Positions 4,420 through 19,981 of a stretch of 32,000 bases of DNA are shown here, piece after piece (positions within the stretch are counted from its first letter, which is position 1; the number at the start of each line of letters is the position of its first letter). The notes under the pieces are model-generated. The model searched no databases, was not told where the DNA came from, and saw only the letters and a program-made list of their open reading frames with translations. This DNA comes from Candidatus Brocadia sp. (GTDB lineage Bacteria; Planctomycetota; Brocadiia; Brocadiales; Brocadiaceae), in contig CP091279.1 in the NCBI GenBank assembly GCA_021650915.1, positions 780,001-812,000 on the forward strand, written 5' to 3'. The translations under genes and the position numbers were made by a program.

Positions 4420-4583
4420 CAGATACTATACAGGGGAGGACACACAATGATGATATCATTCCTGCCGACAGAAAACCATCAAATTCCCCTTTCTCACCTT
4501 GCTCATGATCATGGTGAGTTTTTCCCGATAGCCGGGATAGCGTATGATTTTGGCTATTATTGCTATACTGAAGATACATCACT

Positions 4584-5081
4584 TTATTCATGAATACGTT
4601 CATAGATTGATAACGTGTAAGGAATTACATCTTCATAATTTTCCGACCTTATCCTTCGGAACAATGCAAAGGGAATATCGGGAAAAAATACATCACCAGC
4701 AATCTCCCGATGGAGGACTGACAAATAAATCCGATCAGCTATCGCAATCGCCTCCTTGTAGAGTTGTTCACCACCACAGACAAACATCTCATTTTCATCT
4801 TCAGGACAAATGGTAATTGCAGATGCTAAATCTCTTGCAATAATGCATCCGGGTGCGCCGTAGCCTGCTTTACCGGTAAGAATGATATTGATTCTCCCGG
4901 GAAGTGCGTAGCCAATTGATTCATAGGTTTTCCTACCCATAACCAGGGTATGTCCCATGGTGATGCTTCTGAATCGGCGTAATTCAGCGGGGAGGTTCCA
5001 AGGGATACGTCCGCGATTCCCAATAACACGGTTTGATGCCATCGCTGCTATGAGTGATATCCTGAGACCTGGTCTTTTCAT
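4584..5081 (-). CDS. folA: Dihydrofolate reductase
   Basis: ISLIAAMASNRVIGNRGRIPWNLPAELRRFRSITMGHTLVMGRKTYESIG is a classic DHFR N-terminus. Start placed at the internal ATG 5081 (166 aa); the ORF-track start 5183 adds a non-homologous 34-aa extension. Confidence 0.9.
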   Translation of the reverse strand: MKRPGLRISLIAAMASNRVIGNRGRIPWNLPAELRRFRSITMGHTLVMGRKTYESIGYALPGRINIILTGKAGYGAPGCIIARDLASAITICPEDENEMFVCGGEQLYKEAIAIADRIYLSVLHREIAGDVFFPDIPFALFRRIRSENYEDVIPYTLSIYERIHE

Positions 5082-6538: not shown

Positions 6539-7546
6539 ATGGAAAACCCTATAATCAAAAAGTCACCATCCTCCAAGCTGGAGGAAACTCTGATAAACAC
6601 CTTTCCCCGGATTTGCACCGATTGTGGTAAATTAACAAACAAACAGTTTTTACTGACAAATCCCGTGCTGCAAAACACAACACTGAGCGAATTCATTAAG
6701 AATGCCAACACAAGCTATATACTGGCAAAATTGACGATTGAAGAGTTTTACGAGGGAGAACTGTATTTAATCTTTACCGTAAAAGAGGCTATTACGATAG
6801 GAAGTCTCTTGTTAACCCTTGAAGATGCCATAATAAGGGAAAATGCAGACAAGGGTATTTTTGAAGGTGATTGTACAGACGCATTCAAGGAATTTGCGAA
6901 TCAGGTCTGCGGTATGTTAGACAACGAACTAAGACCGAAGTTACCCAAGCCCATCCACCTGAAATTAACAAGCACGGTTCTCATGAACAAAGAGAACGCA
7001 AACACGGTACTCAGTGAAGAAATCTTGAATGAAGAACGCCTTATTCTGACGGCGACTATGCAGATTCTTGGCTTTGATGACGGCAAATTCATACTAAGTA
7101 TTTCCAAACTGGTTGGTGAAGAATTTTTTTGTGAGATCATCGCAGAGGATACCAAAAAGTTCAGGGGCACGATACTCGTTGTAGATGATTCAAATACTGA
7201 CCTCCGAATTATACGAAAACTTTTAGGTGATGAATATAAGGTATTGGTCACGGACAATCCAAACAGTGCACTCTCTAGGCTTCAAAAAGACCACATCGAC
7301 CTTGTTTTAATTGATGTTCACATGCCAGGTATTAGCGGGATAACGCTTTGTGAACGATTTAGAAGGAATGCAATGTCTAATGCAATACCAATTATAATAT
7401 GCTCCTCATCTCCAACGCAAGAAAACGTGATACAAGCCATTCGCGCTGGAGCGGAAGACTTTCTGGTTAAACCATTCACCAGACAAAAATTAATTGAAAA
7501 GATTAATAAGCACTTAATAAACAGAAACGTACTCTTAAATTCTTAG
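6539..7546 (+). CDS. Fusion protein: CheC/CheX-like N-terminal domain plus C-terminal REC receiver
   Basis: C-terminal REC is complete (VVDDS, LVLIDVHMP, ICSSS, LVKPF). The N-terminal ~205 aa contains DAFKEFANQVCG (D-x3-E-x2-N), but the downstream Pro spacing is not canonical. Confidence 0.7.
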   Translation: MENPIIKKSPSSKLEETLINTFPRICTDCGKLTNKQFLLTNPVLQNTTLSEFIKNANTSYILAKLTIEEFYEGELYLIFTVKEAITIGSLLLTLEDAIIRENADKGIFEGDCTDAFKEFANQVCGMLDNELRPKLPKPIHLKLTSTVLMNKENANTVLSEEILNEERLILTATMQILGFDDGKFILSISKLVGEEFFCEIIAEDTKKFRGTILVVDDSNTDLRIIRKLLGDEYKVLVTDNPNSALSRLQKDHIDLVLIDVHMPGISGITLCERFRRNAMSNAIPIIICSSSPTQENVIQAIRAGAEDFLVKPFTRQKLIEKINKHLINRNVLLNS

Positions 7547-7704
7547 GAAGGTATCATTTTAACCCGACGAACATACGAAAACCGCAGATTTCACAGATAA
7601 CGGGGATCTATTTTTTATAATCCGTGTTCTCTTTTTTGTTGTGACTATGCCACGTTATGAAATTTGTGACTTCCCTTAAAACATGATTGATGAGGACACC
7701 GAAT

Positions 7705-9504
7705 ATGGAAGACAACATGAATCTTATGGACGATGTTGAAATTGTTAAAGAATTTCTTGTCGAATCTAATGATCACCTGGACGACGTTGAATCCAAAATA
7801 CTGGATTTGGAAAAGAACCCCGAAGATGTTGATATTATTAATGGCATATTCCGTCCGATTCACAGCATAAAAGGTAGCGCTGGTTTCCTGGGTCTGAAAG
7901 ATATCGGTAAGGTAAGTCACGAATTAGAAACGCTTCTGGATGAAGGAAGGAAGGCCAAAATAATAATTACACCGGGGATCATTGAGATCCTCTACGAAGG
8001 CGTAGACCTATTGAAAAAACTCAGAGATGTGGTAGTTAAAAAGGTTGATAACACGAATGCCTCCATAGATGTAATTAATTACCACCCATTTTTATCAAAA
8101 ATACCTGCTATTTTAGGACACCATCAGGGTGTCGCACAAAAAGAAAAGACCATGGGTAACTCTCTAAAGGAAAAGCATATTGGCGAAATATTAGTGGAAA
8201 CTGGCGATATTAGCAAAGATCAACTGGAAATAGCATTACAGGAACAGGCACAGGGAAAACGATTGGGTGAAATATTGGTCGAAAAAGGAATGACTACCCC
8301 AGAAAAAATTAATGACGCACTCAAGGTCCAATCGGTGATAGGCAAACCATCTTCTGAAACGGTTAAGGTAGATACCCAAAAGTTGGATAACCTGGTTAAT
8401 CTTGTGGGTGAACTGGTGATTGCCAATGCCCTCATCTGTGAAACGCTGGGAAACATCAATCGCGGCGCAAACAAAAATTTTTCTCACCTCAACAAGATCG
8501 TTAAAGATATACAGGATCAGGTCATGTGCATGAGGATGGTGCCTTTGAAATCAACCTTCCAAAAGATGGCCAGACTCGTGCGGGATGTTTCCGCAAAGGT
8601 GGGCAAGAAGGTTCAGTTGGAAATTTCCGGGGAAGAGACGGAACTGGACAAGACAGTAATTGATGAGATCGGGGATCCGCTCGTACACATTATCAGAAAC
8701 TCAATCGATCATGGAATCGAGCCTCTGGAGGAGCGAATAGCGAAAGGGAAACCGGCAGATGGTCTTGTGCGGTTAAATGCCTTCCATCGGGCTGGCAACA
8801 TTGTCATCGAAATAGAAGACGATGGAAAAGGCCTTTGTAAAGAGAGGATTTTAAGAAAGGCAATTGAAAGGGGTTTAGTCGATGGAAATGCCACTCTCTC
8901 AGATCAGCAAATCTTTAATCTCATTTTTGCCGCAGGGTTCTCTACAGCCGAAAGGATAACCGATGTTTCAGGACGCGGCGTGGGGATGGACGTCGTAAAA
9001 AAGAATGTCGAGCGTCTGCGGGGAAAGGTAGAGATTTCTACCGTAGAAGGAAAAGGAACAAAAATTTCCATCAAACTGCCGCTTACTTTGGCAATTATTG
9101 ATGGCATGATTGTGCAGGTTGGTCCTGAAAAATACATCGTCCCCATGCTTTCCATTGAGGAGTCCATCCGTCCAAAGAAAGAAGACATATCTACCGTGCA
9201 ACAACGCGGGGAATTGATTAACGTGCGGGGCGATTTGCTCCCCATGGTGCGTCTCCATAATTTGTATAATGTTCCGCCGAAGAGAATGAATCCGTGGGAG
9301 GCACTCATCCTGGTCGTTGAAGGTGAGGGGCAAAGATGCGGGATTCTTGTCGACGATCTCCTCGGCCAACAGCAGATAGTCATTAAGAGTCTGGGAGAAC
9401 AGTTCCGCAATATCAGAGGCATTTCCGGCAGCGCTATCCTTGGTGACGGACGCATAGGCCTTATTTTGGACGTTGGGGGTATTATGAGTATGGCGTTGAA
9501 TTAG
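7705..9504 (+). CDS. cheA: Chemotaxis histidine kinase CheA
   Basis: Hpt motif HSIKGSAGFLG, dimerisation segment (LDNLVNLVGELV), HATPase N/G boxes (IRNSIDHGIE, DDGKGL, GRGVGMD) and a C-terminal CheW-like domain. Start ATG 7705 lies 8 nt after GAGGA; the ORF opens at 7687. Confidence 0.93.
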   Translation: MEDNMNLMDDVEIVKEFLVESNDHLDDVESKILDLEKNPEDVDIINGIFRPIHSIKGSAGFLGLKDIGKVSHELETLLDEGRKAKIIITPGIIEILYEGVDLLKKLRDVVVKKVDNTNASIDVINYHPFLSKIPAILGHHQGVAQKEKTMGNSLKEKHIGEILVETGDISKDQLEIALQEQAQGKRLGEILVEKGMTTPEKINDALKVQSVIGKPSSETVKVDTQKLDNLVNLVGELVIANALICETLGNINRGANKNFSHLNKIVKDIQDQVMCMRMVPLKSTFQKMARLVRDVSAKVGKKVQLEISGEETELDKTVIDEIGDPLVHIIRNSIDHGIEPLEERIAKGKPADGLVRLNAFHRAGNIVIEIEDDGKGLCKERILRKAIERGLVDGNATLSDQQIFNLIFAAGFSTAERITDVSGRGVGMDVVKKNVERLRGKVEISTVEGKGTKISIKLPLTLAIIDGMIVQVGPEKYIVPMLSIEESIRPKKEDISTVQQRGELINVRGDLLPMVRLHNLYNVPPKRMNPWEALILVVEGEGQRCGILVDDLLGQQQIVIKSLGEQFRNIRGISGSAILGDGRIGLILDVGGIMSMALN

Positions 9505-9632: not shown

Positions 9633-10074
9633 AATAACGAATATCGAACAGGGAATAATGAATGTCGAAGGATAAGAGAATATTTGATCTTGAAGAACGC
9701 TTAATAGATTTTGCCGTCAGAATTATTCGGACAACGGAATCCTTACCAAAAACCAGGGTGGGAAATCACATTGCGGGGCAACTTATTCGCTGCGGTACAT
9801 CATCCGCTCCCAATTATGGTGAAGCCCAAAGCGCAGAATCTCGTTCTGACTTTATACACAAGATGAAAGTCTCCCTTAAGAGTTACGTGAAACAAAGATA
9901 TGGTTATTAATAATTGTAAAAGCCAATCTCATAAAACCAATGTCAAAGCTTGCACCCCTGATTAATGAGAATAATGAGCTTATTTCGATTTTTGTGACAA
10001 GTGTAAAAACCGTGAAACAAAACGTGGATAAGAAAACCTCATAGTTCGAAATTCCTTGTTCGATATTCGTTATT
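9633..10074 (+). mobile_element. Inverted-repeat-bracketed four-helix-bundle gene cassette (copy 1)
   Basis: AATAACGAATATCGAACAGGGAAT (9633-9656) and ATTCCTTGTTCGATATTCGTTATT (10051-10074) are reverse complements at 23/24 positions. They closely bracket the ORF. Confidence 0.6.
9662..10044 (+). pseudogene. Four-helix-bundle protein (23S rRNA intervening-sequence protein family), 1-nt frameshift
   Basis: Frame 1 gives ...SSAPNYGEAQSAESRSDFIHKMKVSLK and stops at 9910. From 9880 the -1 frame continues with the family-typical ELRETKIWLLIIVKANLIKP...ELISIFVTSVKT to the stop at 10044. One base is missing in CTTAAGAG (about 9878-9882). Confidence 0.8.
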
Positions 10075-17277: not shown

Positions 17278-17757
17278 ATGAATGATGTTCAGACTGCAAT
17301 TACTGTTGGCGTTGGCGATCTGAAGATTACGCAAGCGCCTAATGAATTAAAAACATTACTGGGCTCCTGCATTGGAGTTGTATTACACGACCCTATCAAC
17401 AAAATTGGTGGGCTATTACACGTAATGTTACCAAAAAATAATAGTAATGATTTAAAGATTACCAAGTACGCTGATACAGGGCTCCCCTTTTTTATTTATC
17501 AGATGGTCACCCATGCAGGCGCATCCAGAGGGGCTCTTTATGCCAAAATATTTGGTGGCGCAAAGATGTTCGAGACCAATGGCCTGTTTAATATAGGTGA
17601 ATCAAACGAAATAGAGGTACGACGAATATTGAAAGAAGAAGGAATCAGGGTAGTATCGGCGAAAACCGGTGGTACGAAAGGATACAATATTTTGTGCGAT
17701 ACAGAGACGGGTGAGGTAACGTGCCGTATCTTTGGTGAAGCAATCGTAATTTATTAA
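17278..17757 (+). CDS. cheD: Chemoreceptor glutamine deamidase CheD
   Basis: LKTLLGSCIGVVLHDP, GGLLHVMLP, AKIFGGAKMF and NIGESN are CheD signatures with the catalytic Cys/His context. ATG 17278; the ORF opens with TTG at 17257. Confidence 0.9.
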   Translation: MNDVQTAITVGVGDLKITQAPNELKTLLGSCIGVVLHDPINKIGGLLHVMLPKNNSNDLKITKYADTGLPFFIYQMVTHAGASRGALYAKIFGGAKMFETNGLFNIGESNEIEVRRILKEEGIRVVSAKTGGTKGYNILCDTETGEVTCRIFGEAIVIY

Positions 17758-17830
17758 TATCATTATAATGCCTGCAAAGCACCAAAATACAAGCACCAAA
17801 TCACAAATAAATTCCAATAAACAAAATCCA

Positions 17831-18340
17831 ATGTTCAAACAATATGATTTAGAAGAAAGAACATTCTGTTTTGCCAAGAATGTTACCCTTTATGTGAGGC
17901 AATTAACAAAAAATGTTTCAACCTTGGAACATGGTAAGCAAGTAATACGTGCTTCTGGTTCTGTAGGAGCTAATTATATTGAAGCCAACGAAGCCCTAAG
18001 TAAAAAAGACTTGTAACACTTTAGTTTTTTGAAAAATTACCATAATAACGATGTTGCCGCACGGTGTAAGGGCGAAGCATTTGCCATAAATTGGTATAAA
18101 TGTATTCATACCCCAAGCTGGCAAATGCTTCGCCCCTACTTTTTCAAAAAACTAAAGTGTTACAAAGACTTTATTATGAGAATAAAGGTATGCCGTAAAG
18201 AGGCAAAAGAATCTGCTTATTGGATAAGATTAGTAGTCGAAACAAATGATGAGCAATATAAACGAGAAGGAGAAAAGCTTATAAATGAGGCAACTGAGCT
18301 AAAGAAGATTTTTTTCACTATTATTTTAAAATCAACGTAG
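17831..18340 (+). pseudogene. Four-helix-bundle protein gene (copy 3) interrupted by a MITE
   Basis: N-terminal half MFKQYDLEERTFCFAKNV...GSVGANYIEANEALSKKD ends at a TAA created at the MITE junction (18014-18016). C-terminal half FIMRIKVCRKEAKESAYWIRLVVE...ELKKIFFTIILKST resumes after the insert in the same frame. Confidence 0.85.
18013..18163. mobile_element. MITE, 151 bp, perfect 24-bp TIRs, 8-bp target-site duplication
   Basis: TIR-L GTAACACTTTAGTTTTTTGAAAAA (18013-18036) is the exact reverse complement of 18140-18163. Flanking direct repeats AAAGACTT at 18005-18012 and 18164-18171. Inner IR at 18066-18085 / 18120-18139 (19/20). No coding capacity of its own. Confidence 0.88.
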
Positions 18341-18415
18341 TTTTACTTTTTAGATATTGTAATTTATTTGAAATTTGGTCTTTGCGACTTGGTCTTTTAG
18401 ATTATAAGCTTTTGT

Positions 18416-19480: not shown

Positions 19481-19522
19481 GGTCTCTTAACAAGAATATT
19501 TTAACACTTTATAACAAATAAT

Positions 19523-19953
19523 ATCTGAGGAAAACAGGAAGGCAAGAAAGTGGGACTTGAATTTGAGAAATTGACAGATGATATCATTGCAGCATCCATT
19601 GAAGTTCATAAAACCCTTGGACCAGGTTTTCTTGAAGCTGTTTATGAAAATGCACTTTCACGAGAATTCGAAACTCGTGACATTCCTTATAAACGACAAT
19701 GGGAAATATCTATATTCTACCATGGAAATGAAGTAGGCAAGCACAGACTGTATATGTTTGTTTTTGATAAATTTGTAGTTGAATTAAAGGCAATAAAGGA
19801 AGTTACAAATGAGCATTTTGCAATTGTTCGTTCCTATTTAAAAGCAGTAAGACAAAGACACGGTTTGATCCTAAACTTTGCAAAACCAATTTTGGAAATA
19901 AAAAGAGTTATTTTTACAGAATAATATTCCTGATCTTCCTGCTTTCCTTAGAT
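19523..19953 (+). mobile_element. Inverted-repeat-bracketed GxxExxY gene cassette
   Basis: ATCTGAGGAAAACAGGAAGGCAAGAAA (19523-19549) and TTCCTGATCTTCCTGCTTTCCTTAGAT (19927-19953) are reverse complements at 21/27 positions. They abut the start and stop codons. Confidence 0.5.
19550..19924 (+). CDS. GxxExxY protein (PD-(D/E)XK nuclease-like small protein family)
   Basis: Family signature GPGFLEAVYENAL (G-x-x-E-x-x-Y), followed by ...VVELKA... Intact 124-aa ORF with a GTG start. Confidence 0.8.
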   Translation: MGLEFEKLTDDIIAASIEVHKTLGPGFLEAVYENALSREFETRDIPYKRQWEISIFYHGNEVGKHRLYMFVFDKFVVELKAIKEVTNEHFAIVRSYLKAVRQRHGLILNFAKPILEIKRVIFTE

Positions 19954-19981
19954 GTTATTTAAATTTTTAAGATGAATACCT

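Follow-up and report, generated by a model that had tools for sequence, protein, structure and literature searches.

Classical bacterial MITEs, such as Correia of Neisseria, pneumococcal RUP, ERIC and MITEAba12, are 100-200 bp long, bear long terminal inverted repeats (TIRs), fold over their whole length into a hairpin, and occur in many copies which lie mainly between genes and occasionally disrupt one. An element of this kind was found in the window analysed here (by which we mean the whole stretch of 32,000 nucleotides, positions 780,001 to 812,000 of contig CP091279.1, from Candidatus Brocadia sp.), and the repeat family to which it belongs, called family 1 below, shares all of these features. 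Family 1 differs from the classical MITEs in its host, a member of Planctomycetota, in the combination of one TIR with at least five unrelated hairpin cores, and in the target-site duplication, which is TA in Correia and RUP and 9 bp in MITEAba12 but 8 bp in family 1.

Among autonomous elements, canonical IS66 insertion sequences, with three ORFs (tnpA/B/C), resemble family 1 in the GTAA start and in the 8-bp duplication (PMC11946415). Their inverted repeat, however, starts with GTAAGCG (PMC11946415), bases 5-7 being GCG instead of CAC or CAA; the TIRs of family 1 begin with GTAACAC or GTAACAA, and the canonical start was not seen among them. The family-1 TIR is nearer to the ISBst12 group (ISBst12, ISGka4, ISDge4), whose members encode a single-ORF DDE transposase (PF03050), start with GTAAC and generate 8-bp duplications, and which is likewise present in the bacterial family from which the window's element comes. 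ISDge4 has TIRs GTGACTACTCAGCA and GTAACTGCTCAGCA, an 8-bp direct repeat and a single transposase of 449 aa (PMC12898284). ISGka4 on pHTA426, annotated as 'IS66-like element ISGka4 family transposase', ends with GTAACTATTCAGCC and GTATCTATTCAGCC and is flanked by the duplication AACTCGTC. Elements of this group are about 1.7 kb long and contain a transposase gene, whereas the window's element has 151 bp and lacks one; the ISBst12 terminus also departs from the family-1 TIR at positions 6, 10 and 13 and in the whole inner half. Thus, the description of the ends as IS66-like, made in an earlier note on this DNA, holds at the level of the IS66 family, by way of a resemblance to the ISBst12 group with its GTAACTAYTCAGC terminus and 8-bp duplications, but not in the sense of the canonical GTAAGCG.

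The sequence at 18013-18163 is a MITE inserted at AAAGACTT in a four-helix-bundle gene between cheD and cheC, and we consider it likely that its mobiliser was a transposase of the ISBst12 group. The insertion adds 159 bp, including an 8-bp duplication, belongs to family 1 and inactivates its host gene.

The insertion and its host gene

The element, 151 bp long, is bounded by perfect 24-bp TIRs, GTAACACTTTAGTTTTTTGAAAAA at 18013-18036 (plus strand) and its perfect reverse complement at 18140-18163 (minus strand), and is flanked by the 8-bp direct repeat AAAGACTT at 18005-18012 and 18164-18171; all these coordinates and sequences are exactly as the earlier note had given them. The number of matches to the 24-bp TIR expected in the window by chance is 0.00. 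The palindrome reaches 2 nt into the duplication (TT..AA), and wider boundaries of the element, with TT...AA counted in the TIR, were ruled out because in the logo of the 260 listed family ends conservation starts abruptly at G1; it ends at position 24. Between the TIRs of this copy, which belongs to subfamily A with the core GTAGGGGCGAAGCATTTGCC..., lies a core hairpin (18066-18139) with 20-nt arms at 18066-18085 and 18120-18139 and a 34-nt loop. The nested 20-bp inner repeat noticed before is indeed present, with 19 of 20 positions paired and one A/G mismatch, and can be extended to 36 nt at 78% complementarity. The coding capacity of the element is confined to trivial ORFs of 31-42 aa that overlap it; no similarity to a transposase was detected within the 32-kb window, nor does the window contain a PF03050 transposase.

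The interrupted gene is split into a 5' part at 17831-18012 (plus strand), which holds the first 60 codons and two bases of codon 61, and a 3' part at 18172-18340 (plus strand), whose frame is still open in the window. Deletion of the 159 bp at 18013-18171, that is, of the element and one repeat copy, yields an uninterrupted ORF of 116 aa with ...EANEALSKKDFIMRIKVCRKEAKES... in its translation. The continuous four-helix-bundle frame predicted earlier was thereby recovered: the restored ORF aligns without a break to TIGR02436 ('four helix bundle protein'; residues 9-113 to profile positions 3-106 of 109, E 2.7e-18) and also matches Pfam PF05635. When the insertion is kept, the best Pfam match is confined to the N-terminal half of the protein, residues 9-64. 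The 159 inserted bases are in frame, as had been claimed, and the frame through them is open except for a single stop, the TAA at 18014-18016 (plus strand), which truncates the host gene after codon 61. This stop had been ascribed to the left junction; it is indeed the only one, but it is not made by the junction, since it consists of bases 2-4 of the element's own GTAA terminus. The host gene is inactivated by this TAA. Two sister strains (L121 and L123) carry a further TAA in the 3' part of the gene (GTCGAA changed to GTCTAA), as expected of an already inactivated gene, and the gene would now be in neutral decay.

Intact orthologues of 116 aa, P0001 and P0002, were obtained in a protein search; they are 91-92% identical to the restored protein, and one of them is assigned to Candidatus Brocadia sp. 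by NCBI. On eight contigs (L124-L131) the orthologue is found in the order MCP - cheD - gene - cheC - cheY, the same as in the window. In the DNA alignment the relatives read ...AAGTAAAAAAGACTT|TATCATGAG..., with one AAAGACTT, and the window and strain SOEW01 have exactly 159 bases more. BLAST alignments of the window with the empty-site relatives break at 18012|18164 with an overlap of 8 bases. The empty site that had been proposed as a check was thus found in L124 and L128-L130, where AAAGACTT occurs only once, the MITE is missing and the gene is intact. Since the window has exactly 159 bp in excess of these intact relatives, the pair of filled and empty sites constitutes a proven insertion with an 8-bp target-site duplication. 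The contrary case, in which the 159 bp would be an ancestral part of the gene, was tested and is contradicted by the orthologues devoid of them. Together with a multi-copy family showing consistent 8-bp duplications, the empty orthologous sites bear out the interpretation of the element as a MITE insertion. The locus provides a clean record of transposition (filled site, empty site and duplication) in an uncultured anammox bacterium, although the event is of an ordinary type, in a small dispensable gene, and leaves the understanding of MITEs unchanged.

Two other assemblies (L121, L123), 99.4% identical to the window, have this insertion as well, and the empty-site relatives show 76-85% identity to the window in the flanking genes. 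The insertion would therefore have taken place after the split from the relatives of about 76-85% identity and before that of the strains of 99.4% identity. Its earlier dating as a recent event is acceptable in so far as it is later than species divergence, but it is recent only in relative terms, being common to strains 99.4% identical. The insertion can be used as a strain marker.

Contig LAQJ01000239.1, which we take to be a contig of Ca. Brocadia fulgida, is 100% identical to the window from 18105 on, so that its position 1 lies inside the element; position 1 of a Logan contig (L123) corresponds to window position 18137, again inside the element. Both contig starts are assembly breaks caused by the repeat. 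Family 1 thus fragments short-read assemblies of anammox bacteria, with two public contigs ending in the window's copy alone.

A separate observation concerns one of the relatives, L131, whose positions 1-361 align with window 17653-18012: the region of the four-helix-bundle gene shows 92.5% nucleotide identity there, which is above that of the neighbouring che genes (about 79-85%).

A repeat family in anammox bacteria

Many copies of the family TIR, GTAACAnTTTAGTTTTTTGAAAAA, are found in Brocadia, Kuenenia, Jettenia and other Planctomycetota. A pattern scan for the end, in one genome per species, gave at least 120 matched stretches; within these, ends were called with up to 4 mismatches to the family-1 TIR. 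Nearly all of the stretches listed come from Brocadiaceae or Planctomycetota, the hosts being Brocadia (pituitae, sapporoensis, carolinensis and several MAGs), Kuenenia, Jettenia and other Planctomycetota, together with two deltaproteobacterial MAG contigs. At least 260 ends were obtained. At least 96 pairs of them face inward, with a spacing that is usually 128-170 bp and most often 150 bp, and at least 68 ends are solo.

The flanks of the other copies carry 8-bp repeats as well. Among the 96 pairs listed the repeat is perfect in 42 and has one mismatch in 18, and its sequence differs between copies, so that the duplications which the earlier note suggested looking for at other loci do exist. 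According to the logo, the target site is AT-rich and roughly palindromic, R-A-A-W-W-T-T-Y. The listed copies almost always lie between genes: after excision, only 6 of 95 are situated in an ORF of 120 aa or more, compared with a coverage of 71% of the loci by such ORFs. The window copy is one of the rare genic insertions; the gene that it hit is one of a multi-copy family, in which it is tolerated.

At least 22 paired copies were counted in one Brocadia MAG, and 11 or more in a second. Copies of the same genome at different loci are up to 97-99% identical, and it follows that the family has recently been active in Brocadia. Among the matches listed, copies of other Brocadia species share no more than 89.5% identity with the window's copy. 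The shared TIRs enclose at least five unrelated hairpin cores; in 118 of 130 cases the core lies no more than 200 nt from a TIR. A full-text literature search returned no paper describing MITEs in anammox bacteria or family 1, which is apparently a large and so far undescribed repeat family. A high-copy, recently active family is thereby revealed across Brocadia, Kuenenia and Jettenia.

Several individual loci deserve mention. In the core hairpin of subfamily A, the 34-nt loop is found in either orientation with respect to the asymmetric spacer (for example, L033 6577-6726 and L074 289-438), which suggests inversion by recombination between the hairpin arms. L015 contains a segmental duplication of a MITE with its flanks (1150-1420 and 2600-2900), and in the second copy the left TIR is precisely missing, as if deleted between short AAAAGGTA repeats. 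Solo ends are present 2-50 nt upstream of start codons of dinB-like, aspartase-like and other genes (L004 6868-6891, L050 4827-4850, L082 866-889). The family-1 end contains TTGAAA, and promoter donation by the solo ends is possible. Exact family-1 ends were also met on contigs binned as Desulfobacterales and Deltaproteobacteria (L008 2803-2887; L114 3101-3124), which could reflect either horizontal transfer or mis-binning; on L008 the end is followed by AATATCGAACAAGGAAT, a motif flanking a four-helix-bundle gene in the window.

Termini and the putative mobiliser

Comparison of the ends was based on ISGka4 and on a sample of 80 metagenomic loci with ISBst12-like elements, from which 41 full-length copies of about 1.7 kb, ending with GTAACTAYTCAGC, were extracted; this terminus and the 8-bp duplications were checked on both. 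The consensus of the metagenomic ends is GTAACTATTCAGC, with the first 13 bases alone being conserved. Flanking duplications were seen in 7 of the 41 copies, all of them exactly 8 bp, at offset 0, directly outside GTAAC. A direct duplication is lacking in 31 of the 41 full-length copies (L133-L212), probably as a result of short contigs joining the flanks of different copies. In many of the copies without a duplication the flanks are mutually complementary and the inverted repeat runs a few AT-rich bases past GTAAC; palindromic targets or chimeric assembly of multi-copy elements are possible causes.

The TIR of the window's copy, which is also the common one in family 1, agrees with the ISBst12 terminus in 10 of the 13 terminal bases, GTAAC being shared. 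Agreement rises to 11 of 13 in the variant GTAACAATTTAGC (20 of the 260 listed ends) and to 12 of 13 in the variant GTAACAATTCAGC; the listed examples of both variants are elements with perfect or near-perfect duplications. Positions 6 and 10 of the ISBst12 terminus, T and C, are about 98-99% conserved, whereas family 1 has A and T there, and for this reason the known ISBst12-like enzymes may not recognise family-1 ends.

A second MITE family of Brocadiaceae, family 2, has the TIR GTAACTATTCAGCG/A, which is an ISBst12-type terminus, and perfect 8-bp duplications in three of four pairs (its copies are L107 7258-7858, L109 1554-1746, L111 7449-7729 and L087 3045-3339). The two families share genomes, 8-bp duplications and the GTAAC start, and differ in that the end of family 2 is identical to the terminus of ISBst12-like insertion sequences, while that of family 1, including the window's copy, is a diverged version of it. 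In L107 a family-1 copy (7512-7724) is nested inside the family-2 copy. No hybrid elements, with one end of each family and a duplication, were found beyond TIR variants and nested copies.

The window itself contains, at 15-222, a chimeric repeat remnant without a flanking duplication. Its components are a family-1 end in degenerate form (CTAACAATCTAGTTTTTTGAAAAA, 15-38), a hairpin with perfect 22-nt arms (35-56 and 124-145) and, after these, the right-hand portion, about 185 bp, of a family-2 MITE, which ends with GCTGAATAGTTAC at 222; homologous sequences are L087 3163-3340 and L088.

Searches for the mobiliser were concentrated on an element combining family-1 TIRs with a transposase gene, and no full-length one was recovered from the at least 120 genome loci, the 80 loci with ISBst12-like elements, or viral, plasmid and phage collections. 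In the metagenomic loci the family-1 TIR was present at 0 of 80, and in the viral, plasmid and phage collections a partner with this TIR gave no match. Beside the 68 listed solo ends no autonomous partner was seen, the interiors consisting of housekeeping or ordinary genes, and among the listed loci the GTAA...TTAC pairs 0.4-4 kb apart with duplications could all be traced to MITEs lying next to or inside one another, or to a single segmental duplication. All-against-all clustering of the ORFs of the listed loci disclosed no multi-copy transposase. When ISGka4 and seven ISBst12-like proteins served as tblastn queries, a single truncated insertion sequence came up, in Kuenenia, with the other type of TIR. 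This element (L050 1209-2250, Kuenenia sp. Bin_40) is frameshifted, and some 260 aa of its transposase are left; the left end reads GTATCTATTCAGCGAAAATAATTTAGAATTTACTTGACAG (also given as GTATCTATTCAGCG). Full-length homologues, such as Q1PX41 of Kuenenia with 449 aa, contain PF03050 and PF20042. Genes of ISBst12-like transposases in Kuenenia are those of L050, P0124 (449 aa, PF03050 and PF20042) and L213, and they represent ordinary IS copies or fragments with TIRs of their own.

The following course of events may be proposed. The element would have been cut-and-pasted, or copied, into the octamer AAAGACTT of the four-helix-bundle gene of Candidatus Brocadia. Being non-coding, it would have been moved in trans by a DDE transposase which binds to the 24-bp ends and cuts with an 8-bp stagger. 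The likeliest enzyme is one encoded by a single ORF (PF03050) and belonging to the ISBst12 group within the IS66 family. An enzyme of this group appears most likely because of the GTAACTAYTCAGC ends, the 8-bp duplications and its presence in Brocadiaceae. We infer, from the sequences of the ends, that it is the best-supported mobiliser of family 1. The earlier suggestion of an IS66-type transposase is therefore retained in the narrower form of an ISBst12-type enzyme, but the partner expected elsewhere, with the same TIR, did not emerge among the loci searched. On this interpretation the known range of ISBst12-type ends is enlarged.

Mobilisation by a DDE transposase from outside the IS66 family and the ISBst12 group, such as those of ISL3, IS1595, IS256 or IS6, which also give 8-bp duplications, might explain why the family-1 TIR departs from the ISBst12 terminus at otherwise invariant positions, why its inner half, TTTTTTGAAAAA, has no counterpart in ISBst12-like ends, and why the loci searched yielded no PF03050 partner with this TIR. 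We regard this as fairly unlikely, since every ISBst12-group end examined shares with family 1 the terminal GTAAC and 10-12 of the 13 outermost bases, and the same genomes also house a sister family of MITEs that ends exactly as ISBst12 does; to our knowledge, the ends of other families making 8-bp duplications start with GG or similar, and not with GTAA. It is very improbable, in our estimate, that a classical autonomous partner does not exist at all and that the elements are served by a transposase resident in the genome, which may be domesticated, present once and devoid of TIRs, in a manner similar to REP/RAYT, or cross-mobilised by insertion sequences of the GTAACTATTCAGC type. The signs of recent activity, i.e. 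97-99% identical copies with intact duplications, would fit such an arrangement, as would the use of one 24-bp end on at least five unrelated cores across several genera and the lack of a partner among the listed matches of the sampled near-complete assemblies. Yet the partner search covers the listed matches only (at least 120 loci), the ISBst12-like genes of Kuenenia belong to ordinary IS copies or fragments with their own TIRs, and a conserved syntenic transposase gene was not identified. A broader proposal, quite unlikely as a whole, would treat the 24-bp end as the hallmark of a superfamily of mobile hairpin modules, built on five or more unrelated cores and active at present in several anammox genera without a classical autonomous partner; an ISBst12-like transposase resident in the genome, and perhaps domesticated, would move them, or they would be moved through cross-recognition by GTAACTATTCAGC insertion sequences; cores with a stem and U-tract would then serve as portable terminators or RNA-stability modules in operons, here between cheD and cheC/cheY.

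That the sequence might not be a transposon, but an ancestral or lineage-specific insert in the gene or a REP/BIME palindrome spread by a Y1 (RAYT) enzyme, is brought to mind by its folding into one long hairpin and by the resemblance of the cores to REP-like palindromes. REP/RAYT and IS200/IS605 elements are not known to produce duplications or to have long TIRs, and the element has both an 8-bp duplication and 24-bp TIRs. Moreover, the orthologues lack it precisely and carry the octamer once, and 8-bp duplications accompany 42-60 of 96 listed independent copies, each with a different sequence. The empty sites and the recurrence of the duplications refute this possibility, to which we assign next to no probability, and the reading as a MITE with an ISBst12-type mobiliser is the one we prefer.

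RNA fold and the cassette genes of the che operon

As RNA, the element forms one long hairpin with a free energy of -71.1 kcal/mol (z = -12.2). On the plus strand, the GC-rich 20-bp inner stem is directly followed by TTTTT (UUUUU in RNA) at 18140-18144. A consensus terminator scan made no call at the core hairpin because its loop of 34 nt exceeds the 8 nt allowed by the scan, and Rfam gave no match in the window. Judging from this arrangement, the core hairpin with its U tract could be terminator-like, placed between cheD and cheC/cheY/cheR/cheB; this is put forward purely as a hypothesis. The insertion may affect expression of the operon.

A second four-helix-bundle gene is present in the window at 9633-10074, matching TIGR02436 once two frames are joined, and is bracketed by a 24-nt inverted repeat (AATAACGAATATCGAACAGGGAAT, 96% complementary). 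It cannot be read without a frameshift near 9880, and is therefore a pseudogene or the product of a sequencing error.

The cassette genes of the che operon each lie within a long inverted repeat of their own, with arms at 17776-17826 and 18348-18398 around the host four-helix-bundle gene, and at 19516-19541 and 19935-19960 around a GxxExxY (PDDEXK_3) gene (19550-19924); in the relative L129 a cassette repeat has its arms at 4451-4480 and 4944-4973. In the slot between cheY and cheR of the relatives, a four-helix-bundle/bAvd gene replaces GxxExxY, and its flanking repeats are different ones that consist of CAGTAGG heptamers. By analogy, the che cassettes look like exchangeable units resembling the intervening sequences of 23S rRNA.
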